Part shown: positions 471-56,000 of the stretch, one piece after another
How positions within the stretch are numbered: the stretch's first letter is position 1
Layout: every line of letters begins with the position of its first letter
NCBI GenBank assembly: GCA_036785375.1
Contig: JAWMAR010000040.1
Location: 7,626,001-7,690,000 of the forward strand
Reading direction: 5' to 3'
Source: Leucoraja ocellata
Lineage: Eukaryota
Length of the DNA: 64,000 bases
Notes under the pieces: model-generated
Told to the model about the DNA's origin: nothing
Databases searched by the model: none
What the model saw: only the letters and a program-made list of their open reading frames with translations
Made by a program: the position numbers and the translations under genes

Positions 471-2544
471 ATGCTATAAGCAAGAGTAAACTAATTAATC
501 CTCAGTCCAATCGTAGCTAACCATCTATCGTAATACCATGTTGCTGCCTCGCTCCATACTTCTTGATGTATTTTGTGTCTAGAAATCTCTCTTGCTCCTT
601 CTTCAGTATGGTAAATCACTTGACCGCCTCAGCTTTCTGTGATAAAGAATGACACACCGTAGGTTCAAGTGAAGGATCTGATGCCAAGAGATTGGACTAG
701 GGAATGCAGAGCCAGAATATCTTCCTTGGGTTGGGGGGGAGCATGCTGGTTGGAGGGTAGTTCAAGTTGGAGATCTCTAGCACACCCTGTTCCCTGTTAC
801 TCAACAAAAACCTAATCCAGTTTCATGTTTTACTCTGGCGAATCTCAGTATATCCTTCTTAAGATGCATGTCAATGACTGCTCACAATACAACTGGCATG
901 GACTAACTATTGTTTTGCATAGGTGTAGCAATAAACCACAACCCAGTTGGATTCAAATCACAGAATGGTTCCAGTACAGAAGAAGACCATTGTGTCCATG
1001 CCATCTCCACATTGGAGCAAGTCAATTCATGGTTGCTGGTAAGGCCATATCATCTTGGGGCTTTCTGTCATATTCTTAGAATTGAAGAGATTAGTCCGAC
1101 AACACATTCTTTGGTTTGCTAAGTTAATATTGTGTTGATAATTCCATGTTACCTTCTGATAATTGCATGCATAATTTGACATTGAATTTATGAATGCAGA
1201 CACCACGTCAACCATTTTCTAACCTGGTTGTACCTCTCCAACTTCACATATCATGGCTGCCAATGTCCAACACATTTCCTCATCAGTCCCTGACAGAAAT
1301 CATTCTATAAATGATTACCATGTATACTGTTAACTCTACGCAAGCAAGACATTTCATTGGCTGTGGTATAAATGACAGTAAACTAATCTGAACCTGAATC
1401 TAAAAAGTGACTAGCACGAGACTTTTTGTTTTAGGGTTCTTTTGTCTTTCAAGCATTTTGACCTCACTTACTGAAGTATTTATTTTCTTTAGTACACCAT
1501 ATCTTATTATGTATTAATAAGTTTGGGCAGAATAAGATAAATTCCTTTCAGAAGCTCTAACCTATCCAGATAGTTCAGGTTAGACAGGAGCATTATTGCA
1601 GAAATGTGTAAGTCGAGAAAGTCAATCCAGCAGCTGAATTTCTATGATGAAGCACTGTTTCAGCCCTGTACATGTCAACAATGACACAGACTATCAGGGG
1701 AATGCACTGAGGTTGAGGGCAAGCCAAAGTGCATTTTGCACACTTCACACTGTACCTAAAAAATATTTTTGTTATTACTTTACACTGCTAACTATTTCAA
1801 TTTTTAAGTTTGGATTTAATGCAAGTGATAAAAAGGTAATATTTCCCAAATGGATGCTCTCTTTCTTAGAAGCGTGCAAATATGGTTTTGGCATGTTAGT
1901 CTGGAATGTGGAGTATGGATGAAACTAACAGATTGCTCCCAGAAGAGTGGAGTCAGGAAAATACAGAATAACACATTCATTATGTACTGTTTCGATTAAT
2001 TCCTAATTTAGTAGCAATAAACGCATGGCAGATAAATCGGAAAGCTCTATTTGCACAGGTTGCAAATGTCATGGAGGTATTGAGGCATTCAGTTACAAAG
2101 GAATTTTATTGCTGTAATTCATTCAACTATATTGAAAATAAATCTCTTTTTTCTGACCTGAACCTGAGCAACTTTATAAGATTTTGGGCTTGTTCTTCGA
2201 TTACATTTCACATATACTTTCTTGAAATAATTTCTTCCTCTGAATTTTCTTTAAATAACAGTCAATTTTGTTTAGTATCGAGCAATTGAAGTCTCAGACG
2301 TGTCATTATTGAGAGATTTTGCAGAGGAATGTTCAGAAACCTGTGTGCTATTTTGGGAAAGTGTTTAACTATCTTGTAACTGGAAAGCCTAAAGTTACAA
2401 GTATTTTAAAATTGAAATATTCCAAAGAGCCTGCAATCGATATCAATGTTTGACACTGTTATTTAAGTAATAGTCACATCTAGTTTAATCTAAAGAGTAT
2501 TAAAATGCATTATAACATTATATTATGAATTTTGTTTTTTGTCT

Positions 2545-3250
2545 CCACCCCTTTCTGATTTCCGCAGAGACCGTTCCCTCCGAAACTCTCTGGCCAACTT
2601 GTCCCTTTCCACCCAAACCACCCCCTCCCCACGTACCTTCCCCTGCAACCGCAGGAGATGCAATACCTATCCCTTTACCTCCCCCCTCGACTCCATCCAA
2701 GGACCCAAACAGTCTTTCCAGGTGAGGCAGAGGTTTACTTGCACCTCCTCCAACCTCATCTACTGTATCCGCTGTTCCAGGTGTCAACTTCTCTACATTG
2801 GTGAGACTAAGCGCAGGCTTGGCGATCGTTTCACTGAACATCTCGGCTCAGTCCGTCCAAAACCTACCTGATATCCCGGTGGCTCAGCACTTCAACTCCC
2901 CTCCCATTCCCAATCTTTCCTTTCTTTCCTGGGCCTCCTCCATTGTCAGAGTGAGGCCCAGTGCAAATTGGAGGAACAGCACCTCATATTTTCCTTGTGT
3001 AGTTTACACCCCAGCAGAATGAACACTGACTTCTCTAACTTCAGATAGCCCTTGCTTTCTCTCTCCATCCCCTTCCCCTTCCCAGTTCTCCCACTAGTCT
3101 TACTGTCTCCGACTATATTCTATCGTTGCCACGCCCCCTCCCCTGTAATCAGTCTGAAGAAGGGTCTCGACCCAAAGCATCACCCATTCATTCTCTCCAG
3201 AGATGCTGCCTCACCCGCTGAGTTACTCCAGCATTTTGTGTCTGCCTTCA
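2545..3250 (+). mobile_element. Penelope-like element 3' fragment (GIY-YIG endonuclease plus 3' pLTR with degenerate hammerhead motif)
   Basis: ORF 2539-2871 contains NLIYCIRCSRCQLLYIGETKRRLGDRFTEHL, then VAQHFNS. Downstream gtctgaagaagggtctcgacccaaagcatcacc at about 3152 has the GAAA core mutated. Confidence 0.88.
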
Positions 3251-3984
3251 AATATTGCAAATGTTGTCTTCAAAATCTAATCCACCCATCCTGGACATGC
3301 ATTCCATGTTTCCCTGATCCTCTAAACTTTGTGCTGCACAATTTATCATGTGATCCCTTGTTTTGTTCGACCTATATCAAATTTCTCTATGTTGAAATCC
3401 CCCTGGCATTTTCTGTTCCAGCCTAATCACTCCTTTGATATCTCTCTTTAGCTGAGAATTATTTCCCTCACTATCAACCATTCAGTCAAAATGTTATTGT
3501 AATAAATCTGTTAATTCTGTTGCCTATTTTGTCTGAACCAATTATAACAGACCAATAACAGCAACAGACCCAGTAATGACCTGCAGACCTACTATATTCT
3601 GGCCTTTGATTACAAATCAATTCCAGTGATTATTATATTTTTGCTTTCTGTCACTGAACCAATTTCTAATCCAGTTATTCCTTTTAATTTTTTCATTATT
3701 CTTCAATGTAAGACTTTTTCTTCAGATGCTTTGCTAAAATGCTTGTACACTACATGCACTACAGTCTTCAGCAATTCTCAATACACTCTTGAAAAATTCA
3801 AAGTAATCAGACCTGACCTCTCCCTAATTACTCTATGCTGACTATCATTGTTTAGCACATGGTCCTCTAAATGCCATCTATCGGAAGGTTTTTTACCAGT
3901 AATTTCTCACTATTGACTGCTTTGTGTTTATCAATTTTATTCCTTTTTGAGCAATGAAACCATGGAAGGAATCTGCCTGTTTGT

Positions 3985-5199: not shown

Positions 5200-6095
5200 G
5201 TCAAAGCCATGGAGTGATACAACATGGAAATAGGCCCTTTGTCTCAACTGTTGGATGATCAGCCATGATCATATTGAATGGCGGTGCAGGCTCGAAGGGC
5301 CGAATGGCCTACTCCTGCACCTATTTTCTATGTTTTCTATGTTTCTATGTCCCATGCCGACCAAATTGTTCCAGCTAAGCTAGTCCCATTTTCTTGTTTA
5401 AGAAGGAACTGCAGACGCTGGAAAATCGAAGGTGGTCAAAAATGCTGGAGAAACTTAGTGGGTGAGGCAGCATCTATGGAGCGAAGGAAATAGGCAACGG
5501 TTCGAGTCGAAACCCTTCATCAGAACCCATTTTCTTGTGCTTAACTCGTATCCCTCTAAACCTTTCCTATCCATGTATGTCCAAATGTCTTTAATATGTT
5601 GTTAATTGTACCTGCCTCAATCACTTCCTCTGGCAACTTGTTTCATGTACCCACCATCCTTTGTGTGGAAAAGCTGTCTGTCATGTTGTTATTAAATCTT
5701 TCTTCTCTCACCTTAAACCAATGTCACCTCGTTCTTCATTCCTGCACCCTGTGCATTCACCCTTTCTATTCCCTTTGTGATTTTATTCACCTCTATAACA
5801 TCACACCTCAGCCTCCTGCACTCCAAGGAATAAAGTCTCAGCCTACCCAACCTCTCCCTATAGTTCAGGCTCTTGAGTCCTGGCAACATCCTTGTCAATT
5901 TTCTCTGCACTTCTTCCAGATTGATGGCATCGTTCCAATAGCAGGGTGATGAAAATTGAGCACAATACTTCAAGTGAGACATCAATGACGTCTTGTACAA
6001 CTCTAACATAATGTTAAACTTCTATATTCTATTCCCTAACTGATGGAGGCCAGTGAGCCGAAAGCCTTCTGCACCACCCTATCTCCCTGCGACAC
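5200..6095 (-). mobile_element. CR1 LINE 3' fragment with nested insertions
   Basis: ORF 5713-6009(-) reads LKYCAQFSSP...EEVQRKLTRMLPGL...LYSLECRRLR. It contains a nested + strand CR1/HE1 tail at 5250-5350 ending (ttctatgt)n. Confidence 0.82.
5398..5525 (-). mobile_element. Penelope-derived hammerhead mini-element with 13-bp TSD
   Basis: Flanked by exact cccattttcttgt at 5385-5397 and 5526-5538. Reverse strand starts ctgatgaagggtttcgactcgaaccgttgcc. Confidence 0.8.
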
Positions 6096-7819
6096 CAGTA
6101 AATCTTGACAATTTTCTTTCTCGGAAGTTTCATTGCCTTCAATAGATACAGTATAGTGCTTGTCCTGTACACGTGAAAATTACAGTATAAACAATTTTAA
6201 AGTGGGTTGTATATTTCATGGGCATGACAATCTTATATTCCTAAAATACTTCATTTTTCATAGATTTTGAATCAAAGTGTATGAACAATTTTAAGATAAA
6301 AAGTTAGTTCAGTGAGAATATTGCCTCTTTGGTTGGAAGTTCACCTCTCAGTTAATAGGTGTTTTGTTGAATGGAAGTCCCACTCCAGTACCTTTGATAT
6401 AGTATCTAGTGCTCTTGTGCTTTCCTGAATGTAGAGCTGAGGATCTCTTTATTTGTGGAGCGTATCCTCATAAGGTGCAGGAACATTCTTCCTGATTGCC
6501 TGACCAATATTTATTATCTAACCTGCTCACCAGAACACTTCACCTCCTCATTATCACAGTGTTGTTTCTGACATTTCATTGCAAACAAATTGATGCAGCA
6601 TTTTCAGTTAGAGTGACAACAGTTCTAACAATGCTTCTTTACATGTTTATTGCCTTTGTATTTGCTGAGGACTTGAAAAACAATGTATCAAAGTTCAATT
6701 TTCTCTAGATGCTGTCAGCCATGTCTCTCATAGACTTTAAGGCAAATTCATTTCACGGACCTTTATACACATAGGAGTCCAGCTCCAGTCTTGCACATTG
6801 TTTTGAAGAGAGCCATTCCTTTCTTCCTGAAGACAGTTAATTGCTGCTTGCCAACAATTAGACTATACCACTGTGCAGCATCTGGAGAATGAGGTCAAGG
6901 TTTCTGTTGTAGCACAGACAAAGGCAACCTTAAGTATGAGTGCAGTCAAGCACTCTCAAATTACTGTTTTGGGATCTGTCCTATGGCAGATAATAAGACA
7001 AAATGATATGCTGGAAATGGTAGTAACTCCATGGAGTTGTCTCAAAATTCCCCTCCTTCCCTCCACTGTCTCCCCGTCTGTTCATAATCCCTACCTCATC
7101 TGGTTGTACCTGTCACCTACCAGCCTCTGTCTCTTTCCACTTTCTCACCTCTTTATGTTGGCTATCTTCCCTTTACACCTTCAGTCATGATGCAAGGTCT
7201 TGATCTAAAATGTTGACCAGTTCTTTCCTCCACAGATGTTGCTTGATCTGCTGTGTTCCTCCAATAGCTTATTTTTTCCCCTCTATGCTATCACTATGGT
7301 TACACCAAAACATTTCTACAAAGAGCTTTGGCTTGACATCAGGGAGGTCCATATGATTTCATCCATTAAGCATTGTTGACAGGAAGTATGGTCTATCACC
7401 TCATACTGTGGCTGTTATCACTTCACACTGAATAAGGAGTTTGACATCACAAGAGAATGAACCATTAGCTTCCTGAACAGAAACAATATTTACTAAGAAG
7501 TGCGCAGTGTAAATGTGAATTAAAAAATCCTGGGTAATCCCAAATATTACTGCTCTTGCAGTCTTAAACAAACCAATCATCCAAGGGACAGTAAATTCAA
7601 ACCTTGCACTGATTTAATGAAAAATACAACTGTAGTGGCCATTTGGCATGTTTTGCATGTCATTGAGAATGGCATGTGCCTTTAAATTTTAGACTGCCCG
7701 TTATATTGTGGGTGGGATTTATGACATGTTTTTGGGCGTGTTTGGAGCTTAGCTGCTTGCGCAGAAGTTTAGTTTTTAGATTAGTTTGGAGAGCCATGGG
7801 GAAGATTAACCCTTCTACT

Positions 7820-8920: not shown

Positions 8921-11004
8921 CTAATAAAAGACAGTTGCTTGCCCTTCTCGAATAGGCCCCACTCTATGGGGCCTTTATTGGTTAAATAGTTGCAATTCAG
9001 ATTTTGCTGCTCAGCAGATTTGAATACAGTGGTGAGGGACAAATGTGGCAGTACCACCAAATAATGCCTGGTATTTCCTCCTGATGGCACGCTACAATTG
9101 GTTTTTCTACAGTTAATTAATCAGCTTATTTCTGGCATTGTAAAGAGATCTGGTATTTGGCAGTGTCACATTTTACAATGGATACATTAATATATTGTGG
9201 AATACTTGACATAGGATGGCAGAATTGCAGAAATCTAATGAAGTAGAATTTTTGAGGACTAGTTGAAGAGTGTTTTATTAATATAGCACATTCCTGACTC
9301 AGAGCTGCAAGAAACCTGAACTGATGATCTAACATTTATACCACAAAGCAATTATTTTCTTTGTACACCATCCATTCTGAGAGATAAATTTAATTATGCT
9401 TAGAAATAGGATACAAAACATAAATCATAACCTATTAGTGGAATTAAATATTTTTTTGGTGACAAGTGAGGCAACAACTCTTGGTTTTGGACATATTTGT
9501 TTGAGAAAATTACAATCGTTTACTTATTTTTGCTACATTTTTTCTGCACTTTATTAAAAATTGATATACAGAAAAACTAAAACACGTAAAAGAGTATAAT
9601 GTTACATTTAATCAAAATTTTAATTATTGTTCCAATTCAAGGTGGTAAGCAAGTTCTAAGATGTGACCCATTTGCTTGTGGGGTCCATTTCTTCCTCCTG
9701 GCATCTTTTCCTTCTTTCCTTCCGGATCTGCACATTATTTTGTAACTTTCTTTCTGTACTGTTAAACAAACCTGGGTTGGGAGATGGAAAGGGAAATGAA
9801 GATAAACATACATTACATGGTGGGTTAAATTATGTCCAAATTAAGTCCAAAATAACCTGGAGACACAGGAAACTGTAGATACTGGAATCTTGAGCAAAAA
9901 TGTAAATGCTGGAGGTTCCAACCTGAAACATCATCTGTCTATTCCCTCCATAGATACTGCCTGAATCGATGAGTTCTTCCAGCACATTACACTTTGTCCA
10001 ACATAGCATAGTGTACTGTCAACCCCAATAACTGCGGTTCTCAAGTTATTAAGTTTTTATCTCTTCACTGCATCAGTTTGCAGTATTTTAACCTCTGACT
10101 GATCTTGACATGAACCTCTTTGTTTGTAGGTAGTCTAGACTCACCATGTTAATATTCTCTGCGTTGTTCCTTGATTTACATTAAAGCATGATTTGAAGAA
10201 AATTCAGGAGAGTAAGAATGTGCAGATAATTAATAATTGCAACAACATAAGGAGTATAAAGTTAATTCTATGTTGTAATCAACCACAGTAATTGAGAACT
10301 ATTCTTTGAAAGTCCAGTTAGAGTTCTGAGGTTGGCAAGGGACAACAAGTTAAGCCATGCCAACAACTAACTCTGTCAACAATTAAAGAATTAGAGATTT
10401 TATCAGCTCATCTGATATTGATCAATAAAGAATTTAATTCACCAAACTTTCAACTTCATCCAAGGTATTGCACATTTCATCAACACAATTAACCATAATT
10501 ATTTTTGGTGCTTTCCTAATTTTGAGATAGATTAGTAACACGTATTCTGGACATCACTTGTTCTCCTCAACCAATGGATTATTAAAAATATATATTCTTT
10601 AATTTTTTGCACAATTTTTTTTTACGGGAAAAGCTAAATAGAAAAATATACTTCACATTGTTAAAGTTCTTAAAATTGAAAGTTATCATAAGTAGCAGTG
10701 CACTCGGCCCAATTTTCCATTCTATTGATGTCAATGAAAACAATAATCAGAGGATGTTTTGATAGGTGGCAGGTTTGCTGCCTAACCTTTCCTGCTTCCA
10801 CTGAATTTGCAGTTTTTCTCCCCTCATCTACCAGGTATCATTGATGGAGAATAAGAAGTAATAATGGTTACAAAGAAATCTAAAAAACAAATTGCCTCAA
10901 GCGTGCTTAAGAATGTGGAATGTGAAGAGCTGATGGTGGCAGATTCTCAAGCACATTTAGGTATGTGGACAAACACTTGTATAGAACAGATGCTGGTAAA
11001 TGGA

Positions 11005-11250
11005 ATTTGTACAGATGCTGGAGGCACACAGGCAGCATCTGTGGAGGGAAATGGATGGACAATGGTTACGGTCAGGATCATTCTTCAGACTGATGGAGTG
11101 GAGGGGAGAAAACTGGGAGAGAGAGGTGGGGGGGGAAGGGGTAGGGCAAGAACTGGCAAGTGATAGGTGGATTCAGGTGCGGAAGCAACAGTTGGCAGAT
11201 GAGTCAGGTGGGATAGTGATGGGTAGAGATAGTAACCAAGGCTGGAGGTA
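11005..11250 (-). mobile_element. Decayed Penelope-like 3' pLTR segment
   Basis: ggcagcatctgtggagggaaat...atcattcttcagactg followed by a purine-rich region, matching the reverse complement of PLE 3' ends elsewhere in the window. Confidence 0.65.
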
Positions 11251-11366
11251 AAGTAAAGAAGACAAAAGGATAAACCTTACCAAGTAGTACTACAAACATC
11301 CATTCTCGTGTTACTAAGAAAGGAATGAAGAATGTAGAAAAAGGCACCAGGTATTGTGAAAAACAA

Positions 11367-11467
11367 AGGTACACAAAAAAGCTGGAGAAACTCAGCGGGT
11401 GCAGCAGCATCTATGGAGCGAAGGAAATAGGCAACGTTTCGGGCCGAAACCCTTCTTCAGACGTTTC
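11367..11467 (-). mobile_element. Penelope-derived hammerhead mini-element with 14-bp TSD
   Basis: TSD attgtgaaaaacaa at 11353-11366 and 11468-11481. Intact motif at 11430-11462. Confidence 0.88.
11430..11462 (-). ncRNA. Minimal type I hammerhead ribozyme motif
   Basis: Reverse complement reads GU-CUGAAGA-A-GGGU(UUCG)GCCC-GAAACGUU-GCC. Confidence 0.7.
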
Positions 11468-18004: not shown

Positions 18005-18126
18005 ATTTGTCCAGTTTCCTTTTTCAATTCTATTTTAAAGATTGATGTAATTTCAAAACGTTTTTTGAACACCCTTGTAAACTGGTTTTATCATATTCAA
18101 AATTTGTGCATATACCTTTAATGTAC

Positions 18127-18159
18127 GTCTGAAGAAGGGTTTCGGCCCGAAACGTTGCC
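18127..18159 (+). ncRNA. Minimal type I hammerhead ribozyme motif
   Basis: CUGAAGA core, stem II GGGU/GCCC capped by UUCG, GAAA, palindromic ACGU helix III, GUU triplet. Confidence 0.7.
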
Positions 18160-18222
18160 TATTTCCTTCGCTCCATAGATGCTGCTGCACCCGCTGAGTT
18201 TCTCCAGCTTTCTTGTGTAACC
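18127..18222 (+). mobile_element. Penelope-derived hammerhead mini-element (96 bp) with 14-bp TSD
   Basis: TSD tacctttaatgtac at 18113-18126 and 18223-18236. The element starts exactly at gtctgaagaagggtttcggcccgaaacgttgcc. Confidence 0.9.
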
Positions 18223-18379
18223 TACCTTTAATGTACCATGTGTTCCTACATTGTCGAGAAATAGTTTAATCTAGAAAGTGTATCCATTTCACTAGGCTGT
18301 TAAAGCCCTGCGCTGTCCTCCTTACTCCTTCAACTTTCTTGAGTGTTATGTCATCTACAAACTTTGAAATTAAGCTTGA

Positions 18380-18530
18380 TAATGGCACAATGGTGCAGAA
18401 AATGATGCTGTTACCTCAAAGCTCCAGGGACCCAGGTTTAATCTTTAAATCAAGTGCTGTCAGTGTGAAGTTTGCACTGTGATTGTTTGGTTTACCCCAG
18501 GACCTTCAGTTTTCTCCACACCCCAAAAAA
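18380..18530 (+). mobile_element. Decayed V-SINE 5' part
   Basis: ggcacaatggtgcag...gctccagggacccaggtttaatc tRNA-like head and V-domain remnant. Confidence 0.65.
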
Positions 18531-22669: not shown

Positions 22670-23395
22670 TTTCTAGATCTCACCGTCTCCATCACAGGAG
22701 ACAAACTATTGACCAACATCTATTACAAACCCACTGACTCCCATAGCTATCCAGACTACACTTCTTCCACCCTGCTTCCTGTAAAGGCTCTATCCCCTAC
22801 TCCCAATTCCTCTGTCTACCCCGCATCCCACTACTGGCCACATCTTCCCATCTCCACCCCTTTCTGCTTTCCACAGAGACTGTTCCCTCTGAAACTCCCT
22901 GGTCAACTCGTCCCTTCCCGTCCAAACCACTCCCTCCTCAGGTTCTTTCCCCTACAACTGCAGAAGATGCAACACCAGTCCCTTTACCTCCCCCCCCCCC
23001 CCCCCCCCCCTCCCCCCCCCCTCCCCCTCCCCCTCGACTCCATCCAAGGACCCCAACAGTCTTTTCAGGAGAGGCATAGGTTCACTTGCACCTCCTCCAA
23101 CCTCATCTACTGTATCTGCTGTTCCAGATGTCAACTCCTGTACATTGGCGAGACCAAGAGCAGGCTCGTCGATCGTTTCGCTGAACACCTCCGCTCAGTC
23201 TGCATTAACCTACCTGATCTCCCGGTTGCTCAGCACTTTAACTCCCCCTCCCATTCCCAATCTGATCTTTCTGTCCCGGGCTGCCTCCATTGTCAGAGTG
23301 AGGCCCAGCGCAAATTGGAGGAACAGTAACTCGTATTTCGCTTGGGTAGCTTACATCCCAGCAGTGTGAACATTGAGTTCTCTAACTTCAAATAG
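22670..23395 (+). mobile_element. Penelope-like element fragment (RT thumb plus GIY-YIG)
   Basis: FLDLTVSITGDKLLTNIYYKPTDSHSY and NLIYCICCSRCQLLYIGETKSRLVDRFAEHL..VAQHFNS in ORF 22505-23329. Confidence 0.88.
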
Positions 23396-33745: not shown

Positions 33746-33965
33746 ATATAAAATGCTTTCTATTTCTGCAGATGTCTGGTGCTAATAAATGGCAAAAAAA
33801 TATTTGAGTTAAAGAGAAACGTCTCGACACAAAATGTTACCCATCCATGTTCTGCAATGATACTGCCTGACCTGAGTTATTTGGGCTGGCTTACCATAAA
33901 TTGAAGGCAGTGGAATGATGGATTATCTGCTTAAAATATAGATAGTTTCAGGATTTTGTGACTTA

Positions 33966-35941: not shown

Positions 35942-36479
35942 TAGAAACATAGAAACATAGAAAATGGGTGCAGGAGGAGGCCATTCAGCCCTTCGAGCCA
36001 GCACCGCCATTCATTGTGATCATGGCTGATCGTCCCCAATCAATAACCCATGCCTGCCTTCTCCCCATATCCCTTGACTCCACTAGCCCCTAGAGCTCTA
36101 CCTAACTCTCTCTTAAATCCATCCAGTGACTTGGCCTCCACTGCCCTCTGTGGCAGGGAATTCCACAAATTCTCACCTCAATCTTAAATGACCTCCCCTT
36201 TATTCTAAGACTGTGGCCCCTGTGTCTGGACACGCCCAACATTGGGAACATTTTTCCTGCATCTAGCTTGTCCAGTCCTTTTATGATTTTATATGTTTCT
36301 ATAAGATCCCCCTCATCCTTCTAAACTCCAGTGAATACAAGCCTAGTCTTTTCAATCTTTCCCCATATGACAGTCCTGCCATCCCAGGGATCAATCTCGT
36401 GAACCTACGCTGCACTGCCTCAATCACAAGGATGTCCTTCCTCAACTTAGGAGACCAAAACTGTACACAATACTCCAGA
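35942..36479 (-). mobile_element. Young CR1 3' fragment
   Basis: [33 protein letters not shown]...[11 protein letters not shown], with (catagaaa)n tail. Confidence 0.9.
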
Positions 36480-36655
36480 GCGAAGGAAATAGGCAATGTT
36501 TCGAGACAAAATCCTTCTTCAGAGTCTGAAGAGGGTTTCAGCCCGAAACGTTGCCTATTTCCTTCGCTCCATAGATGCTGCTGCACCCGTTGAGTTTCTC
36601 CAGCTTTTTTGTGTACCTTTGATTTTCCAGCATCTGCAGTTCCTTCTTGAACACA
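36478..36655. mobile_element. Head-to-head Penelope-derived hammerhead element
   Basis: Inverted partial copy 36478-36523 joined to gtctgaagagggtttcagcccgaaacgttgcc (36524-36555), which has the canonical core without the extra A. Confidence 0.85.
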
Positions 36656-39049: not shown

Positions 39050-40535
39050 CTGGTGCTCAGATGCCCAACAAAATGTAGACGAGGGAAGGTGGGGATTTGG
39101 GGAGGGTGGGAGAGCGAGGTGAAAATCAGCAGTACTGTATCCATCTGGAGGGATAGCGAAAGCAGAACTTCGGGACACCGAAGCGATGTGGGTGAGGGAT
39201 CCATCTATGACAGCAGGTGGAATTAATCTTGGAATTCCCCGATGTCCTAGAATGGAATACCTCATCTTGGAAGTGAATGCAGCAGAGTTGGGGAAATTGA
39301 GAGCAATATCAAGAAAGGGGAGAGCAGTGTCAGAAATAGTCAAGTGAATTTGAGGGCAGGTGGTAAAGTTAGCGAAATCCACAAATTCTGCACGGGTGCA
39401 GTTGTTGGTGTAGTGGAGAAAGAATTGGGGGATGGTGCCTGCGTATGTTTAAAACGAGGACTGTTCAATGTAACTGCCAAAGAGGCATGCATCACTTGGG
39501 CCCATGTGCATGTTCACAGTTACAACTTCAACCTTTAACAAATTCTGCCAAACGGAGGAGAGTGGTAGAGTGAAATGGATGGGGCATCTGTTCATCTGAC
39601 CTTGAGATCTTCCTAGTGGGGGATGTCTGTGTAAAGGGACTGGATGTCCTTGGGGCCAAGAAATTGCAAGTTGTTAAAGGGCATATGAGATGTGTCTGAT
39701 GTAGGTTGAAAGGGACTGTAGGACAGTAGCGTGGAACTGGGGTATTTGGAGATTTACCTCCATGGTTATGTTCCTATATATCCTCTCGCCTCCATCCAGG
39801 GACACCAGCAGTCCTTCCAGCCGAGACAAAGTTTCACATGCACCTAATCTAACATCTACTGCATCTGGTTTTTCCCAATGTGCCCTCCTATATATTGGTG
39901 AGACAAAGTGTAGACTCGGCAACCATTTAACAATATTTGTGCTAGGTCTGCCAGGGACGGTAGGACCTCCGGTTGCTAGCCTCTTAACTCCACTTCCCAT
40001 TTCCATACTGACCTTTCTGTCCTGGGCTGCCTCCATTGCCACACGCAAACTAGAGGAACAACACCTCGTATTCCACTTCAACTCAACAGTAATGCAGCTC
40101 TCTTCCTCTCCTTTCTTTCCCCCATATGGATAGCAGGCACCAAAAGCGTTTAAATGTACCTCGGTATAGTGACGATAAATTGAACTAAACTAAATTTATT
40201 CCTCCCCACACTCTCCCCTGTGGACACGCATCTGTTTCTCCCCTTCCTCTTCCCTTTCCTCCTACATTCCTTCCTCTACCTTCACAATTCACAATGCTTC
40301 AATACTTTTGTCACGCCTTCTGTTTTTTCACCTCTGGCTTTTGTCCAGCCATCTCCCTATCATGTAACCCTTCCTCTTTTCCAGCTTCCCCCCCCCCCCC
40401 CCCCCCACCTTACAATCGGCCTGAAGAAGTCCCAACCCATAACTTTGCTTATCCATGATCTTCTCAGATGCTGCCCGCCTTGCTGGATTACTCCAGCACG
40501 GTCTGTTGCTAACCAGTATCGACAATTCTTTGTTT
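39050..40535. mobile_element. Penelope-like element fragments (inverted RT piece, GIY-YIG and 3' pLTR)
   Basis: Minus strand ISDTALPFLDI. Plus strand ALLYIGETKCRLGNHL...RKLEEQHLVF. Degenerate ctgaagaagtcccaaccc at 40421. Confidence 0.75.
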
Positions 40536-41055
40536 CTACCTCTCACTGTCCAATTTCTATTCTGAATGCGCAGCTTCTGATGTGCCAATGGCAGCTTGTA
40601 TATTTGTTTAAAGCTGTGGTATTGCCAGGTTCAACTATTTAAGTATGTTATTTAACCAAGAAAATGTAATAAATTGAAACCTGATCGACTTGAAACGTGA
40701 CCCCTGCCTTGTTCTTGGTTGGATCAACTTAGAATTCTTATTACTTACTCTGTTTTCATCTCGAGTCAAAACGTGGAAAGCTGCAATGTTTCTGCAGATT
40801 AATTCCTCCCCAGGGTACATTTCATGCACTATTATTCAAACGAGAGAGTTCAATTATCTGTTGAATAACCAGATATTTTAGTTTTAAAGTTTGTTTAAGG
40901 GAATTAATGTCCCAGAGAACTCCTTTATATCACTTACCATGCTTTGTGCTACCCTCACTTCTTTATCAACTTTCTTCTCCCTCCCACAATCTGTCTGAAA
41001 AAGGGCCCTGACTCAAAATGTAGCCTGCCCATGTCTTCCAGGTATGTTACCTGAC

Positions 41056-41151
41056 TGAAGAAGGGTTTCGGCCCGAAACGTTGCCTATTTTCTTCGCTCC
41101 ATAGATGCTGCTGCACCCGCTGAGTTTCTCCAGCAATTTTGTGCACCTTCC
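41056..41151 (+). mobile_element. Young hammerhead mini-element nested in an older copy of the same family
   Basis: Intact motif at 41053-41085, overlapping the TSD edge. Near-perfect TSD atg(t/c)tacctgac at 41044-41055 and 41152-41163. Host copy at about 40990-41180. Confidence 0.85.
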
Positions 41152-42724
41152 ATGCTACCTGACCTGTTGAGTTACTCCACTATTTCTTTCTTGTTTCTGC
41201 ATCTTATTAAACTATCTCTGTTGGGTAGGTTATTTTCAAACCAAGTCACATTTTATCTTCAGCCAGTATGACTTTTTTAGTGAGGCAAACTATTCAATTT
41301 CAGTGGTTGATTATAACACATTAATCAATCTCCCCTATGCAAGCAATAGACCAACTGATCAAGCAGCATATTGGAGAAGCCGTAGTTGATGGAGAATCTA
41401 GATCTGAAATGTTGACCATTCCTCTGTCACCACAGGAAATGTCTGACCCGCTGAGTTCTTCCAGCAATTTAAAAAAAAAAATCCAGATTCCAGCATCTAC
41501 AGACTTGTAATTGGACCTGAGACTTCTTTAGTCAGTATATAGGAATTGCGTACTTTGTAATGAATGTACCTTCACTTGCCTTGGTCACCGACCAAGCATT
41601 TCTTCCAAAAGAGCAATTTGCAGAAATTATGATGTGGTTATCTGTGAAAATAAGTGGCTTTACTGTGCAGCTGATGGGGATTTGGCAGCACATTAGGTTT
41701 TCATCATGGAGTCCAGAGCAGCTGAAGAAATATCACATATTTTCAACCTGACAGCTCGTTCTTATCTGCAATTCAGTTTAAACAAAAAAATATTCCTTTT
41801 CTTGGACTGGCTGTTAAATGGAGTATGAATAGTCTTCAGCTTTCTTTTGGAAATTGGAAGCATTCAAATTTGCATTTAATCTTGCCGTGTTTGTTGGGAA
41901 TATTAACCATCTCTGAAGTTGATAAATATGTAAATAGATGTTTTTAAAAAATCTCGTGAAAATATTAGATTTGTTATCCCTGCTTTTCCATATCTATTAT
42001 TAACAAGATCACAATGTGACGGACCAGAGGCGGAAAGAATACCAGGCAATACGTTTAATTATTGGTATTCTGATGACCTCTGTCAAACTCTCTATCTTGT
42101 AAGTTGTTATTTTTACTTTGGTTAAATGGATTGAATTAAAACCGTTTTGGGAGAAAGGTTACACTATAATTAATAAAAGGCAGGGTGACTCCATGTTCAG
42201 CATGTTTCAAGACATTCCACACTGGCATTTGTTTTTATTTTATTGCTTCTATCCCTGCCCCCATCTGTTCCTGCATTTTTTAACATTTAATTTTTTTTCT
42301 GTGTGGAATATGTCATTCACAAAATATGCCTGAGTGGGTGGATCTCGCTGGCGTGGAGATTAAGTCGATTGCTGTTTATCTTTAAGTGGACAAAAAATTG
42401 GGAAGAGAGGGGGAAAAGACGTATCACTCTTGAGGACTGGAGGACACTGCTAAACATACAGGAAATTAAAAGTGTCAAATTCCAAAAATATCTTGTGATC
42501 CGATTGCAAAACCTTTCACAAAAAATGTGGCTTACCCGCTTGGGTCACTAAAGGGACATGCTCAGTGCTGTTTAGCCAATAACGATTGGAATCTAGGGGG
42601 TGGAAGGTCAAAGAGAGTGCAGTGGCTACCAAATTTGTTCATCCATTCAGTGACTTGTATCTGTCATCCAGGTCACTATGAAAAATGTATAAAATCATAT
42701 TTCCCAGTAAGCTGTTCTTGCAGA

Positions 42725-42800
42725 ACATACACAATGCTGGAGTAACTCAGCGGGACAGGCAACATCTCTGGAAAGAAGGAATGAGTGACATTTTGGGAGC
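42725..42800 (-). mobile_element. Penelope pLTR mini-element remnant
   Basis: atgctggagtaactcagcgggacaggcaacatctctgg matches the family body; hammerhead end degraded. Confidence 0.7.
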
Positions 42801-43670
42801 CAGTTATTAAAAATAAATTAAAAGAAATCAAATCTGAAATAAAACTAAATGCTGTAAACACTTGACAAGTTAAGCAGCATCTGTGGAGAGAGTAATGCAA
42901 TGTTTTGGTCAACAGCTGAAAGTGAAGTTGGTTTTGAGTTGTAGTAAGAGTGAGGTGGAGAGGATATAGGAAATATCTTTGACTTGGTGATGCCAATGTC
43001 ACTGGGATGTTTACAGAGCTGCATGGGTGATGGTTTGGTGGATGTTGGAAAGGGAAAGCAAATGAGAATGCTACAAATGCTCAACACAACACCAATGCAT
43101 TTCTCTCTGTGGAGAAAGAAATGAAAACAAATTGAGTTTCTATTGATGATGAATAACGTTGCAGCAGAACGGACCAGTTCACAACCACAGTACACTGAAA
43201 TGGCTAAATGTCTTTCTCTCCATCCTGGCTACTGTTTGGAGGCTGTTTTACCCTTGCAGTATTTTTAAACTCTACCCACAAGGATTCTACATCTTCTGCT
43301 CCTCTGTCATTTCTTGCTAATGGTTTGAATTTTATTCTTTACCAGCAGGGCCATCCTGCCTGTCTTTTTTTAGTCTCAGTAGCTAATCGTATTCTTTAGT
43401 TTTAAGGATGGTATTGTTCCAAGAGAGACGCCAATGACTCCTCTTCCCTGCTCAACCTCTTCTTTGCGAAGCTCCTCTTCCTCATTTCCCATCTCCCATT
43501 CCCTTTATTCTCCTTCTCAAAGAAAATTTACTTCCCTTTGATCAATAATTCAAGAAGCAAAATAAAACTGCTGATATAAAAGATGTTTGAGGCCAAATTT
43601 GGACTGAAGATAGGCATAAAAAGCTGGAGTAACTTGGCGTGACAGGCAGTATCTCTGGATAGAATGAATT

Positions 43671-43704
43671 GGTGACGTTTCGAGTCGAGACCCTTCTTCA
43701 GACT
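43671..43704 (-). ncRNA. Minimal hammerhead motif, GUC-triplet variant
   Basis: Reverse complement reads AGU-CUGAAGA-A-GGGU(CUCG)ACUC-GAAACGUC-ACC. Confidence 0.6.
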
Positions 43705-43972
43705 ATTGTGTTTAAGAAGGAACTGCAGATGCTGGAAAATCGAAGGTACACAAAAATGCTGGAGAAACTCAGCAGGTGCAGCAGCATCTATGGAGCGAAG
43801 GAAATGGGCAACGTTTCGGGCTGTCTGAAGAAGGGTTTCGGCCCAAAACGTTGCCTATTTCCTTCGCTCCATAAATGCTGCTGCACCCGCTGAGTTTCTC
43901 CAGCATTTTTGTGTACCCTTCTCCAGACTAGTTAGGGATAAAGGAAATGAGCGATATAGACGATGATATAGA

Positions 43973-44199: not shown

Positions 44200-44409
44200 A
44201 TGTAGAATATATCTCTCTACATCATCATCTATATCTCGTTTCTCTTATCCCGAACCTGTCTGCAGAAGGTTCTCGACCCAAAATGTCACCCATGCCTTCT
44301 CTCCAGATGCTGCCTGTCCTGCTGAGTTAATCCAGCTTTTTTGTGTCTATCTTCAGTTTAAACCAGCATCTGCAGTTTTTTTTTCCTCCACATTTGAACT
44401 ATTGTGTTA

Positions 44410-45490: not shown

Positions 45491-47334
45491 AGCCCTTAAT
45501 AATGAATTTCCCTAAATGTTAACATTAATAATAGAAGGAAGGCAACCTGTGAAAATAGATGTTTTAGTATGAGTAACCTTTTTATTGTACTCCACAACAC
45601 AATTCCAACCATTGGGATGACTGTATTCCTTGAATTCTTTGCCTCTTCTGTTTTGACCTTAAACTCCAACGCTGGAGCAAACAACTTCAGTGGTAGCCGG
45701 AAAAACATCATCTTTCAATTAGGCATTTTATAGGTTTCCGGACTCTAGTTTGAATCCAACAATGTTGGATCAGAATCTCTGCTTTTATAGGGATAGCATT
45801 TTCAAGTATTGTCATTTTCAGTTCCTTTCAGACCTAAAATCTGCTGTTTTTATTTTTGTATTTCGTAAAGTGATTTCTAGAGCAGCATGTGAGTTAATCT
45901 GCATTTTGATTATTCTTTCCACCTTGATAAAATCATAAGGAGAACAGGTGTTGAACGTTTCTCTTTCCATCTCCCCCCCCCCCCCCCCCCCCCCCCCCCA
46001 AACCTTCTCCACCATTTGATAAGAGCATAGATAATCCAACTTCCTTGTCCACCTTCACACGTTATCTCCATAATCCCAATTCCCTTCCAATTTAAACATC
46101 CATCTCTTGTAGCATTGAATATATTCAAGGATTTGGTTTCAAACTCACTGGGGCAATGAATTCCAAAATCTTGCCACTGTTTGAGAGATTAAATTCTTCC
46201 TCACCAGTTGTGAATGGATGCTGCTGCCTTCTGAAACTATGCTGCCTTCAGGTCCTCCATTCTTCTGGTGTTCACCCTGCCAAGACCAAACTCCAACCAG
46301 TGCAGATCCAATTTATTCAACATTCCAACTTCCATACCAGGTCATTCTCATGAATCTTCTTTGAACTGAGATAATGTGCCTCTTATTAAATTACAGATAC
46401 TGAGAACTGTTAATCAAGCAGCCGAGAAATCTTAACTTTTCAGGGCAAAGACCTCTCATTTGAACTGAGAAAGAAAACAATTTAGTCTAGAGACAAGACA
46501 AGAGACAAGAGACATTTATTGTCACATGTACCAATTACAGTGAAATTTGTGGCAGAGAAGGCATTGGAGGGTAATAGGAGCAGCCAAAGGAAAGTCTGTG
46601 ATAGGGTAAAATGATGTCATCATTGAGTAGAGTTAAGCTTCCTTGTGTAATGTTATTTTGAAGAGCCCCTATCCTGCACCAATTACCACCCCTCCGTTTC
46701 CAATTACCTACTATTCTAATTCACCACCCCATTCCCTCTGACCTTTACACGTATGGCTTTTGCACTTACAACCTGGCCCACAGTAACCTCACTATGTTCT
46801 GGGGCGTGTTACATCCTGCAAGACCCAACATTGAATTATTTTACTAACTTATTCTGTTTGTATCAGAACCAGCTGCTTGTACTTGCCTTTCCCCTCTGCC
46901 TCCATTTATATATTCTGGACTGCTCGGCATGTCCCAGTAGACCACATGATACAACATTAGTAATCATTACTTGGACAAAGTTACTTAATTATCCATTCAG
47001 TGGTTATATAATTTCACCCTATTACACACTTTCTCCTCTCTCTCCTGCCCAGTTAATTAGACCAGATTGCTTTCTCTTTTCAGTTCTGATGAAGGGTCCT
47101 CAACCTGACATGCTAACGAGTTACTCTTTCCACAGATGTTGCTTGTCTGTCTGATTTCTTCCAGCATTTTGTTTTAGTTGGCCTAGAAATAAAAAAAAAC
47201 AGGTTTGGGCTTCCTGATCGTTTGCTGTGTGTTCTATGTATCTTTGTTTTATGTGCAAGATTCTCCAAATCCCTTTGTGCTGTAACTAGCTACAGCTTTT
47301 ATCCATTTAAATAATTTGTTTCCATGATAAATAA

Positions 47335-47560: not shown

Positions 47561-47834
47561 TAACTTTACATTTTCCCATGTTATACCCCATTTACCTTTT
47601 TTTTAATTGTGTTTTTTTTGCACATTCATTTAACCTATAAACCTCTCTGTGAACTATGTCTTGCACAGCTTGCTTTTCCTCTACTTTTCTATCATCTACA
47701 AATTTAGCTTCACATTTATTTTCTGCCTCTAAATCATGAACATGTTGTGTGCAACTGCAGACTTAGATTCAATCCCTGCAACACTTCAATGGTTGCAGAT
47801 TGCCAATGTGAAAATAAGCTCCTTATATGTACTA

Positions 47835-48170
47835 AAGATAAACACGAGAAGCTAGAGTAACTCAGCAGGTTAGGCAGCATCTCTGGAAAAAAGGAATAGG
47901 TAATGTTTCAGGTCGAGACCCATTCTTCAGACTGAGAGTCAAGGGAAAGGGAAATGAGAGATATAGACAGTGATGTAGAGAGATGTAGAACAAATTAATG
48001 AAAGATGTGCAAAAATGAACAATTATCAAGGAAAGGTGGAGCCCACAAATGATCTATTGTTGGTTGTGGTCTAAGTGATAATGAGTTATTCAGACAGTGA
48101 AACTCAACAGAACGACAGTGAAACTAGTATGATGACTAAGGTAGGGGAGGGACGGAGAGAGAGGGGGACA
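47835..48170 (-). mobile_element. Penelope-like 3' pLTR fragment with degenerate hammerhead
   Basis: gcagcatctctgg...tgtttcaggtcgagacccattcttcagact followed by the PLE 3' UTR; reverse complement of the 52700-53005 type. Confidence 0.75.
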
Positions 48171-50849: not shown

Positions 50850-50978
50850 AAAGAACTGCAGATGCTGGTTTAAATCGAAGATAGACACAAAATGCTGGAG
50901 TAACTCAGTGGGACAGGCAGCATCTCTGGAGAGAAGCAATGGGTGATGTTTCAGGGTTGGGACCTTTCTTCAGACTGA
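50850..50978 (-). mobile_element. Penelope pLTR mini-element, degenerate hammerhead
   Basis: aagaactgcagatgctggtttaaatcgaag...gggtgatgtttcagggttgggacctttcttcagact. Confidence 0.8.
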
Positions 50979-51389
50979 TGAAAAGTTTGGTTTTAGAAGA
51001 CTAGCTCAAAATTGGAGGAAGCTTATTGATTTTTCCAGCCATACAATGCTCTATCTGTGCATGGACGTGTGTTCAATTATGGGGCCACGCCCTAAGAAAT
51101 GTTTGTTTATCTTCTAGAGAATGCAACGTGATTATACTGGAATGCTAATTGGAAAACTGAAAATACAGTTTTTTCTCTCTTTACACGTGTTGCCTGGCCT
51201 CTATAGCATTTTCTGATTTTAAACCTGGATATTACATAGATTCCAAAGATTAAATTATGAGAACACAAAAGTGTTGCTTTTGTTTAATTTAAAAGGTGAT
51301 TAGAAATGGTCACCAATAGGAAAGAGATTCAAAGTACTGTTGGTTGAGGAATCTAGATACATGGACCACAGTTTAAAAATAACCGGCCC

Positions 51390-52224: not shown

Positions 52225-53005
52225 CAGTGATGGAGAGAAATCAAGGGTTACTTGAAGTTCGAGAAATCAATATTCATACCACTGGGTTGTCAGCTGCCAA
52301 AGCAAAATGAAGTGCTGTTCCTCCAGTTTGCATTGGTCCGCACCCTGACAGTGGAGGAGGCCTAGGAGACAAAGTTCCCTGACTGTTCTTTCAGGTGAGG
52401 CAGAGGTTTAGTTGTACCTCATCTGCTGTTCTACGTGTGAACTCCTATATCTCGACAAAACCAAGTGCAGGCTCAGCAATAGTTTTGCTGAACACATCTG
52501 TTCAGTCTGCTTGGACCTACAAGATCCCCTGGTTGCTAAACACTTTAACTCTCCCTCCCATTCACACACTGACCTCTCTGCCTTGGGTCTCCTCCACTGC
52601 CAGTGAGGCCCAGCACAAATTGGAGGAACAGCACCTTGTATTTCGCTTGGGCAGCTTACAACCCAGTAGTTTGAATATTGACTTATCTAACTTCAGGTAA
52701 CCCTTGCTTTCCCTCTCTTGCCATCCCTCCCTCATTCTAGTTCTCCAACTAGTTTGGCTGTCCTCCTGATGAAATTTTACTTTGTATACCCCATTGTCAC
52801 CTTCCCCTAGCTAACAATGATCTATTCTACATTCTCCTTCATCTTCGTCCCCTTTGATCTCTCTTTTTCACTCCTTACCCATCCATATCTTGTTTCCCTC
52901 ATCCCTGACTCTGTCTAAAAAAGGGTCTTGACCCAAAATGTCACCAATTCCTTCTACCCGGAGATGCTGCCTGTCCCACTGAGGTACTCCAACATTTTGT
53001 TTATC
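52225..53005. mobile_element. Penelope-like element, inverted 5' piece plus GIY-YIG and 3' pLTR
   Basis: Minus piece 52225-52370 mirrors plus piece 52590-52700. YLDKTKCRLSNSFAEHI..VAKHFNS. Degenerate hammerhead at about 52913. Confidence 0.8.
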
Positions 53006-53049
53006 TTCGAGATCTACTCTTTGCCTGGATCAACTGGGGATGATCCATC

Positions 53050-56000
53050 GGTCCAAGATGGCAGCGCGCACGGTCGCAGCGGCTCACGGCTCCCGGACTC
53101 GGTGCTCTTTTTTGTTGTTTGTGTACGTTGTGTGTTCCGTGTACGTCTTTGCAGTCGGTTCTGCGAACACCCGCTACACCCGCTACTCCCGACAGAACCT
53201 CGTGGATATCGCGGATATCGGTGACCAGCACCAGACTGCGGTTTCGGGTGTCTTCCATCGCAAGTATAACATCCCGGGCGACATAGCGAGACCACCGGGG
53301 TCCCCGTGGATTGTTGTCGGGTCTAGGAGGCGGCGCAGACGGAGGAGGGAGAGGAAGCAGAAGCGAGGCCGCAGGTCCGGTGCTTTGCTAAGGCTAAGGA
53401 ATCGACCACACAAGCCACCTCTACCGAGCCTGTATCTCTCCAACGCCAGATCCCTGGTTCACAAAATGGATGACCTGGAAGTACAACTCGCCGGAAATCG
53501 ATATGTCTGTGACTGCTGTGTTATGATCATCACCGAAACCTGGCTTCACCCAGGTATACCTGATGCTAGCATGCAGCTAGCAGGTCGCTTTCTGCTCCGC
53601 GGGGACAGGACTATAGACTCCGGTAAGAGCAGGGGAGGGGGTCTCTGTATATACGTGCATGAGAATTGGTGCAACAACGGGACAATCATAGCCAACCATT
53701 GTTCCCCTGACCTCGAGTACATGTCTGTAAGATGCTGGCCTTTTTTTCTACCGAGAGAACTAACAGTCGTGATTGTCACGGCTGTGTATATTCCACCTGA
53801 CGCCAATGTAAACACGGCGCTCTCTCTCCTGCTGAACACCATTAACGAACAGCAGCAGGATCACCCCGAAGGTGTTCACATAATCGCAGGGGACTTTAAT
53901 AAGGCCAACTTGAAGACTGTACTGCCGAAATTCTACCAACATGTCAAGTGTTCTACTAGAGGGGTGAACACGCTGGATCATGTCTACACCAATATCAAGC
54001 ACGCGTATAGAGCCAACCCCCTCCCCCAACTCGGCCAGTCAGATCATCTCTCCCTCCTGCTCTCTCCAGCCTACACCCCCCTCAGACGCAGTGCCAGGCC
54101 CACCATAAGATCTGTTACAACCTGGCCTGAAAATGCACTCTCCAATCTACAGGACTGCTTTACACAGACAAACTGGGACATATTCGAACACCAGGATCTG
54201 GAAACTCTCACAGAATCGGTGCTGGACTATATCAAGTTCTGCATCGGAAATGTGACTGTAGACAAAAACATACGGGTTTTCCCAAACCAGAAACCCTGGA
54301 TGTCCAGCCAGGTCCGCACACTCCTCAGAGCCCGCGATGCTGCCTTCAGGTCAGGTGACAGAGCTCTGTACGGGGCTGCTCGAGCCGATCTGAAAAGTGG
54401 TATTAAAAAAGCCAAGGCGGACCATAAGAGGAGCATAGAGTCCCACTTGTCCAGCAATAATACACAGGAGGTATGGCGGGGCATACAAGACATTACCAAC
54501 TACAGAGGCTGTGCCACAAAGTCAGAAGACCTGAGTGCGCCGCTGGCAGAAAAGCTAAATTGCTTCTTCTCCCGCTTTGAAACATCACAACAGCAGCACT
54601 CACCTGCTACAGCCCTGTTCCCACCCTCACCTAGCTCCTGTACTACTCCACTCACTGTAACGGAGCACGATGTCAGACGGGTGCTCCTGGCAGTGAACCC
54701 CAAGAAGGCTACCGGCCCAGATGGAGTACCTGGTAAGGTGCTCAAAGCGTGCGCCCACCAGCTCACTGCCATCTTCACCAGAATTTTCAACCTCTCCCTG
54801 GCCCAGGCAGTTATTCCGTCCTGCCTAAAATCAGCCACAATCGTCCCTGTGCCGAAGAAGTCTACCATCACCAGCCTTAATGACTACCGTCCTGTGCCCC
54901 TCACTCCGGTAATCACGAAGTGCTTCGAGAGGTTGGTCCTCCAGCACATCAAGGACTATCTACCACCAGACCTCGACCCCCACCAATTCGCCTATCGCCA
55001 AAACAGATCCACAGAAGACGTCATCACCGTAGCTCTCCACTCTGTGCTGAGCCATCTGGAGCAGGGGCAGAGCTACGTCCGGATGCTCTTTGTGGATTTT
55101 AGTTCAGCCTTTAATACAATCATTCCGGACATTCTCATAGGTAAACTGGTCACTCTCGGCCTCCCCACTGTCACATGTGCCTGGATAAAGGATTTCCTCA
55201 CCAACCGGCCCCAGACTGTGAGACTCGGCCCCCACCTCTCCTCCACTCGCAGGTTGAGTACCGGTTCCCCACAGGGCTGTGTGCTAAGCCCCCTCTTATA
55301 CTGTCTCTACACCTACGACTGTAGTCCGGCACACAACAACAACCGCATCGTCAAATTTACTGACGACACTACTGTAGTCGGACTTATTTCGAAGGGAGAC
55401 GAGGCAGCCTACAGAGAGGAAGTCCTGAAGTTGACAACCTGGTGCTCAGAAAACAATCTGGCTCTGAACACCAGGAAAACAAAAGAGCTCATTGTCGACT
55501 TCAGGAGGCACAGCACCGACTTAGCCCCCCTACACATCAACGGCGAGTGTGTGGAGAGGGTCAACACCTTCCGGTTTCTCGGTGTCCATATCGCTGCTGA
55601 CATCTCCTGGACGGACAACACGACAGCGGTCATCAAGAAGGCTCAGCAGCGGCTGCACTTCCTGAGGGTCCTCAGGAAGCACAACCTGGACTCTAACCTG
55701 CTGCTGACCTTCTACCGCTCGTCCATCGAGAGCCTGCTGACATACTGCATTACAGCATGGTATGGCAGCTGCACCATGGCAGACAGGGAGAGGCTTCAGA
55801 GGGTAACCAGGACAGCGCAGAGGATCATTGGCTGCCCTCTCCCCTCCCTGATGGACATCTACACCTCCCGCTGCCTTAGCAGGGCAAAGAAGATCATCAA
55901 AGACAGCTCCCATCCTGCGTTTGGACTGTTCGACCTGCTGCCCTCTGGAAGGCGCTATAGGTGCATCAAATCCAGGACAAACAGACTCAGGAATAGTTGC

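Follow-up and report, generated by a model that had tools for sequence, protein, structure and literature searches.

Short hammerhead-bearing repeats as probable by-products of a Penelope-like element with a fixed stop at the hammerhead edge

Many dispersed copies of one short repeat, each beginning with a hammerhead motif, raise the question of whether they constitute a non-autonomous, retrozyme-like family of their own, as the first-pass annotation proposed, or derive from another element. The analysis started from a 64-kb stretch of DNA (64,000 nucleotides, G000:C40:7626001-7690000, hereafter the window) and extended to the assembly containing it (3.44 Gb), whose repeats suggest a cartilaginous fish. 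A profile built from 11 window copies gave 26 matches in the window and 0 in the reversed sequence, which confirmed the dispersed short repeat as real, and all 18 positions listed initially had a profile match at or within ~45 bp. For the copy at 18127, sequence reading reproduced the layout first described, with the core, stem II, GAAA and the ACGU palindrome of helix III all in place. In element coordinates, position 0 is the initial C of CUGAAGA (window 18129). The features of this copy were as follows.

18113..18126, + strand: left target-site duplication (TSD), 14 bp, 14/14 identical to the right copy
18127..18222, + strand: short insertion, corresponding to the pLTR segment -2..+93 of an autonomous Penelope-like element
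18127..18159, + strand: minimal type I hammerhead motif, from sequence and from pair counts over 292 copies; cleavage predicted only
18127-18128 with 18157-18158, + strand: stem I arms, 2 bp
18129-18135, + strand: hammerhead core, followed by a bulged A at 18136
18137-18148, + strand: stem II
18149-18152, + strand: GAAA, with the palindromic ACGU at 18152-18155
between 18156 and 18157 (between +27 and +28), + strand: predicted cut
18160..18222, + strand: pLTR 3' of the hammerhead, ending at 3' site 1 (putative RT start site 1)
18223..18236, + strand: right TSD, of which the first 3 bases match the element too

The remaining matches in the window were assigned as follows.

11358..11466, - strand: young short copy, start -2, with a 14-bp TSD and 5 extra bases
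5392..5528, - strand: short copy with tail (3' site 2) and a 13-bp TSD
41050..41150, + strand: young short copy, start 0, nested in an older copy (40989-41185), TSD 11/12
43708..43919, both orientations: head-to-head inverted pair, a site-2 arm (+130..+16) joined to a site-1 arm (-2..+94)
36473..36650, no single strand: partial inverted arm and short copy with tail
2533..3254, + strand: long 5'-truncated copy of the older subfamily, with a GIY-YIG remnant (2533-3042) and then the pLTR with hammerhead (3147-3254)
52389..53015, + strand: long 5'-truncated copy, with a GIY-YIG remnant and then a decayed pLTR hammerhead (52909-53015)
43596..43706, - strand: older-subfamily short copy, start -3
44254..44366, + strand: older-subfamily copy
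47822..47935, - strand: older-subfamily copy
50865..50979, - strand: older-subfamily copy with tail
47082..47179, + strand: strongly diverged relative with a CUGAUGA core
7188-7273, 9913-9985, 33815-33881, 40415-40499, 41387-41470 and 63760-63842, + strand: further decayed matches
11013-11094, 42725-42797, 42841-42908 and 63651-63737, - strand: further decayed matches

Of the four copies for which TSDs had been named, three carried TSDs of 13-14 bp (18127, 14/14; 11367, 14 bp; 5398, 13 bp), but the copy at 41056 showed only 11/12 matching bases and lies inside an older copy. The GIY-YIG remnants noted upstream of 3152 and 52913 were present.

Penelope RT/GIY-YIG remnants also occurred at 22670-23389 and 39293-40085 of the window, the latter with an internal inversion. 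Two adjoining long open frames on the + strand, at 52983-56048 (1021 aa) and 55997-58762 (921 aa), appeared to be recent; we take them to be of non-LTR retrotransposon type, L2/Rex-like and CR1-like, respectively. A decayed SINE adjoining the focal copy (~18380-18520) presumably resembles the vertebrate V-SINE/HE1 type.

The assignment to a minimal type I hammerhead of the Penelope pLTR type was supported by the core pattern: a conserved core, a bulge after position 9, G10.1-C11.1 and a palindromic 15.2-16.2 were all found. Helix I comprised 2 bp, short of the 4-5 bp used as a criterion for hammerheads of Penelope-like elements (PLEs), and a third stem I pair forms in 12% of 230 copies. An Rfam scan of the window reported no hammerhead family even at E 5, so the hammerhead call rests on the core pattern. 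Covariation of stems I and II, claimed from the sequence, stood only in part: changes from U-G to U-A were seen at stem II (pair 11/16) and at stem I (pair -1/28), but they were one-sided, and the two main subfamilies, with 142 and 67 copies, differed by no two-sided pair change. The subfamilies had 12 differences, 0 of them in the core, and the four inside the motif all lay at tolerant positions (12, 16, 27, 28). The atgctg...cagcat hairpin said to follow the motif folded no better than shuffled sequences (z 0.32), and in the 18127 copy its 3' arm reads CAGCTT, not CAGCAT.

Once inserted, copies decay neutrally. In 150 older copies, core divergence was 7.7% (111/1447 sites) against 7.5% elsewhere (320/4256 sites; p 0.86), with G12 decaying as CpGs generally do. 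A core conserved no better than the rest of the repeat is one of the outcomes that the first-pass annotation had itself named as speaking against its reading. A working ribozyme may be retained by the source lineage; the inserted copies retain none. In folding programs, the form of lowest energy was not the active dimer. Dimer cleavage has reportedly been observed in one study on small PLE hammerheads. Lone copies are unlikely to cut within host introns, because stem I has 2 bp and a monomer comparable to a lone copy did not cleave in PMC4209133.

The source of the repeat was found in the same genome. An intact ORF of 1234 aa, encoding an RT and, at the C terminus, a GIY-YIG domain, was identified at one locus (L168) in 3985-bp tandem units, and the pLTR of each unit contains the short-repeat sequence; the 18127 copy is identical to it at 97/100 bases. 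In Pfam, RVT_1 was matched at E 1.4e-6 and GIY-YIG at E 0.013, each narrowly missing its curated threshold. The ORF contains the motifs DKGG, GVAMG and YIDD; a CX2-5CxxC linker between RT and endonuclease (residues 1101-1109), a criterion of the Neptune/Nematis group (PMC8557442); and residues 1138-1153, which agree with an EN+ Penelope-like criterion, the histidines having been read by eye. Further hallmarks of EN+ PLEs were present, namely partial tandems with a pLTR, an optional 30-40 bp tail and an inverted 5' arm. No solved structure matching the protein was found. By the criteria of PMC8557442, the sequence places the parent among Neptune/Nematis-type PLEs, and the host type points to Neptune rather than Nematis. 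The parental ATG lies at ~+164, outside the short unit. The genome holds intact recent ORFs, so that the protein can be assayed.

Genome-wide, exact matches numbered 25,986 for the 31-base hammerhead part and 87,331 for the 28-base downstream part, with 0 in reversed controls, and extrapolation gave roughly 48,000 young short copies. The claims of very high copy number and recent activity were supported. Among 126 de-duplicated young short copies, 43 had an inverted partner arm; in the other 83, a TSD of at least 10 bp (mode 14) was detected in 48, compared with 4/249 for mismatched flanks, which supports insertion of the short unit itself by Penelope machinery. The focal locus is duplicated 222 kb away, flanks included (L001/L002; G000:C40:7644126 and 7421969), and contig C1 contains many duplicate pairs. 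Such pairs reflect segmental duplication, or haplotype duplication in the assembly, and inflate raw counts (18/166 sampled copies).

The 3' ends of the copies lay at +90..+96 (site 1) and +124..+134 (site 2, with the cluster at +129..+134), ~37 nt apart, and this 37-base difference is the known PLE tail. For the anole element PAc, in vitro work attributed the tail to two internal sites at which the RT starts (PMC11167929); by analogy, sites 1 and 2 would be RT start sites here. Of 29 inverted pairs, 28 joined one site-1 arm to one site-2 arm, which fits priming from both target strands as reported for the anole protein. By length, 22 pairs were short-short, 7 long-long and 0 mixed. The site-1 arm extended further upstream than the site-2 arm in 6/7 long pairs (L037-L159), and this suggests two polymerases in file on one RNA. 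Arm concordance had been considered as proof of a template end and was dropped as non-discriminating, being equally expected from a roadblock.

The 5' junctions were mapped by BLAST in a position-unbiased sample, the first 100 listed matches to the downstream 28-mer on contig C1, from which 15 flank-sharing duplicates were removed to leave 85 copies (four over-extensions were hand-corrected, two of them in this set). Of these young copies, 47 started in -8..+12, where ~1.4 would be expected from the background, with a modal start at -2 (12 copies) and a sharp peak at -3..0 followed by a downstream shoulder to +12. The other starts lay farther upstream (29 copies, flat at 0.8-1.6 per kb to -2.9 kb) or downstream (9 copies). 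The upstream edge was sharp, with 1 event in -50..-9, and the hot zone held 32/55 starts when inverted arms were left out. The excess of short TSD-flanked copies over random 5' truncation, claimed at the outset, was therefore borne out. In a second, core-anchored sample, taken from 80 fetched regions for the first 92 of 100 listed matches (88 of the 92 being unique), 43 starts fell in -8..0, 21 of them at -2. Among the 25,986 exact cores in the genome, the match was lost at -3 in 4,425 and at -4 in 2,468, and CAGT was kept in 14,995. The older subfamily showed the same edge nearer to -3, the match falling to 70% at -3 and 43% at -4 and reaching background from -6 (61 copies without an upstream GIY-YIG remnant; 69 were found by fuzzy motif, 8 with a remnant). 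TCAGT stands just upstream in the long copies of both subfamilies. The predicted cut lies 30 nt downstream of the hot spot; the ends of the unit are thus not set by ribozyme cleavage. At the cut site itself (+28), 3 arms from 2 insertions started, with 0.19 expected, a mild excess only.

In some copies (L068, L223, L109), the first bases of the unit were repeated at the junction, as would be expected from a cDNA ending at -2 and re-priming. A small-sample hint of a cap-derived G vanished in genome-wide counts, where no excess of G preceded the junction (27/100 at -4, 32/100 at -3). A jump from -2 to +30 across stem I was rejected, as just 4 loci genome-wide showed it and a CC preceding the junction was uncommon (422). 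None of the joints listed was a GT-AG joint into -1.

The stop at the hammerhead edge acted on the first pass only. ORF loci were fetched via the N-terminal part of the ORF (60 in total: the 30 best of 40 scored and the first 30 of 355). Among independent ORF-bearing loci that run through the upstream hammerhead, 0/24 started in -8..+12, against 47/76 first passes that stopped in the hot zone (p 1e-8); five further loci stop before reaching the upstream hammerhead (loci counted by hand). No full-length copy starting at -2 was found among the ORF-bearing loci. It follows that the templates of full-length copies reach far beyond the hammerhead in the upstream direction, being multi-unit or circular RNA, as has been proposed (PMC4209133). 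Template jumps to RNA 3' ends at ~+200..+290 left the hot zone in 2/13 cases, compared with 47/85 for starts in general (p 0.015).

Tandem arrays of the pLTR with 200-300 bp units formed a separate, rare class with other, locus-specific junctions. Mini-arrays of the pLTR-ORF junction were seen at L263 (G000:C1:13749906-13752936), L273 (C9), L279 (C12) and L282 (C13). Their units were locus-specific (-50..+250, -32..+266, -47..+209 and +21..+225), each array ending at site 1 or 2, and the +21..+225 unit is without the CUGAAGA core. These arrays look like retrozyme-type arrays born in one insertion via template jumps or small circles. At L265 (G000:C1:20884639-20887669), a single fixed RNA 3' end (+226) was the target of repeated jumps that set out from different positions, and the two arms of the inverted pair at L286 shared one +231/+29 junction, adjacent to the predicted cut.

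Among the matches listed, no RNA record contained the unit. In raw reads from a related organism, the pLTR was covered deeply, and loose ends at -2/-3 with mixed flanks were present, as passively transcribed short copies would give. Starts or ends were not piled up at the hammerhead in these reads; fragmented poly(A) and single-cell libraries cannot show starts or cuts. Single-cell reads over the pLTR (L168:4100-5000, runs X21 and X22) were ~4:1 on the strand opposite the element, which could be due to internal priming or to depletion of sense copies in transcripts.

On balance, we lean slightly towards reading the short units as strong-stop by-products of internal priming, formed by run-off at an RNA 5' end 2-3 nt before the core. 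Among the readings that take the units as by-products, an RNA start is somewhat the better candidate for what ends them, a roadblock a clearly weaker one, and a trimmed or splice-related end has a slight chance. The protein would bind the pLTR-ORF junction and nick the target via its GIY-YIG domain, and the RT would prime internally at +93 or +130 and copy upstream; nicking and internal priming are modelled on the anole in vitro work (PMC11167929). On about 60% of templates, copying would stop after ~95 or ~132 bases. One class of template would be an RNA starting at the hammerhead edge (-3/-2), in which the priming sites lie near the 5' end and give short copies; its start would most likely be capped, at the initiator-like TCAGT just upstream. 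The other class, multi-unit or circular RNA, would give long copies and arrays.

The run-off reading is favoured by the retention of TCAGT in the long copies of both subfamilies, by the sharp upstream edge and by re-priming from -2, and the few jumps from the hot zone (2/13) suit a capped rather than a free end. Against it, no copied-cap G is seen, and the absence of full-length copies from -2 means that this start is not the start of complete-copy templates. The mode differs between subfamilies (-2 in young, -3 in older copies) though both have TCAGT. The mapped start of Drosophila virilis Penelope is described as ~120 nt upstream of an intron end coinciding with helix I, and not at the hammerhead (PMC2377424, PMC4209133). 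Moreover, the unbiased samples came from C1 alone, the 13 jump events are few, and arm concordance and the first-pass-only stop are equally expected from a roadblock, the site-1 arm usually extending farther than the site-2 arm.

Such a roadblock is possible, if unlikely. A protein-bound hammerhead or the C-rich tract upstream of it would halt ~60% of first-pass polymerases on a long or circular template and then be gone, which would account for the 0/24 second-pass stops if the templates are circles, for the missing cap G and, with a trailing second polymerase, for arm concordance. In the anole, the hammerhead is reported to be protein-assisted and uncut RNA to be the main template (PMC11167929). 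A structural block, however, would be expected at fold entry (+30 or +19) rather than at the exit, and the hazard at fold entry equalled the background, bar two events at +28. The region also folds no better than shuffles, and the upstream edge is very sharp. Even so, the data fit an RNA start little better than a roadblock that the first pass removes.

We consider it improbable that the -2 end is an uncapped one, produced by 5'-to-3' exonuclease trimming to the hammerhead or tied to the splice-like polypyrimidine-CAG at -1. The mini-arrays show RNA 3' ends at ~+200..+290, as a protected particle would leave, and the upstream tract resembles a splice acceptor, with the D. virilis intron described as ending at helix I (PMC4209133). 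A free end should nevertheless be a frequent point of jumping or ligation, and only 2/13 jumps leave it. A spliced upstream exon was rejected: in 26/48 copies with TSDs, the unit directly adjoins or overlaps its TSD (gap <=1 base), leaving no room for one.

It is very improbable that the repeat is an independent, non-autonomous element of retrozyme type whose own short copies serve as the source of transcription and re-mobilisation. Such an element would be in keeping with the fixed ends, the TSDs (48/83) and the extrapolated copy number, and non-autonomous Penelope derivatives have been reported (PMC8557442; bioRxiv 10.64898/2026.07.22.740005). No variant private to short copies was found, however: 79 short and 60 long copies shared all common variants except two rare ones (4:0 and 3:0, the best cases among 25 common variants), which were not significant. 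Short as well as long copies occur in every subfamily. For an inverted pair to form, the template must extend to site 2, which is absent from site-1 copies. Short copies occur singly or in inverted pairs rather than as tandem repeats with a hammerhead each, their ends lie off the cut site, and their core decays neutrally. By the definitions given in bioRxiv 10.64898/2026.07.22.740005 and PMC7229834, the 100-bp unit is not a retrozyme. Of the original proposal, TSD-flanked insertion by Penelope machinery stands, but the separate family does not, the unit being a pLTR segment of an intact element. The ~100-bp units are very probably by-products of this autonomous element; without the sequence downstream of the priming sites, they would be inactive from the moment of insertion.

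That the ends reflect ordinary random 5' truncation, or were made by hammerhead cleavage, is barely credible: although 5' truncation is described as the norm for such elements (PMC8557442) and the +28 starts exceed expectation, both are refuted for most copies by the 47 starts against 1.4 expected in -8..+12 and by the distance of the hot spot from the cut.

Returning to the run-off reading, a doubtful extension of it is that the capped RNA from the first hammerhead base is the mRNA, which would give only ~100-bp insertions, the priming sites that it can use being located at its 5' end, and that ribozyme-processed circular or multi-unit RNA alone would give full-length copies. If so, the hammerhead region would be both a promoter start and the point that decides between message and genome, with SINE-like repeats, in their hundreds of thousands in these genomes, as its waste product. 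Both the role of the hammerhead in PLEs and the identity of the RNA that is copied are described as unsettled (PMC4209133, PMC11167929). That about half of tens of thousands of insertions stop at one fixed base, and never on the second pass, provides a genomic read-out of template structure. In addition, an abundant SINE-like repeat can arise without a source gene of its own, which is a trap for repeat annotation. Should the run-off reading fail, the copies would be ordinary dead Penelope fragments.

Several of these features have counterparts in known systems. EN+ PLEs of the Neptune/Nematis type are described with the same single RT and C-terminal GIY-YIG ORF, CX2-5CxxC linker, partial pLTR tandems, 30-40 bp tail, inverted 5' arm and TSDs; the one dominant, first-pass-only stop at the hammerhead 5' edge seen here was not seen in the descriptions of truncated insertions in PMC8557442 and PMC3846280. 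Anole Poseidon PAc resembles the present element in having two internal RT starts that match genomic ends and the tail, priming of both target strands, a hammerhead upstream of the starts and a cut site that is not a common end (PMC11167929). PAc differs as a Poseidon-type element with its start codon inside the hammerhead, whereas the ATG lies at ~+164 here. The main text of PMC11167929 gives no report of the 5' ends of PAc copies, on which its supplementary Fig. S2 may bear.

Metazoan PLE hammerheads share the intact core, the bulge after position 9, G10.1-C11.1 and the palindromic 15.2-16.2; they are described as mostly single motifs attributed to truncated PLEs (PMC4209133). Helix II has 4 bp here versus 7-8 bp in Schistosoma motifs, helix I has 2 bp as in the D. 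virilis variant (PMC4209133), and H17 is U in the youngest subfamily. Non-LTR retrozymes are likewise non-coding, hammerhead-bearing, pLTR-related and inserted by PLE proteins (PMC7229834; bioRxiv 10.64898/2026.07.22.740005); unlike them, the 100-bp unit occurs dispersed and in single copies, has ends that do not coincide with the cut site and lacks a lineage of its own.

A dominant first-pass stop at the hammerhead 5' edge was not found described in the literature searched, although subscription papers, Repbase entries and supplements may hold it. Hammerheads within PLE pLTRs were already known, as were tails, inverted arms and single motifs from truncated copies; what the present data add is that the stop acts on the first pass only, that inverted pairs use one arm per site, and the tests for a lineage separate from the parent. 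The repeat is genuine: a by-product of Penelope whose fixed stop is unexplained, and not a new class of element. Its nearest likeness is the minus-strand strong-stop DNA of LTR retroelements, a short cDNA that arises from internal priming near the RNA 5' end. The likeness is one of analogy only, as the cDNA here is target-primed and integrates as such.
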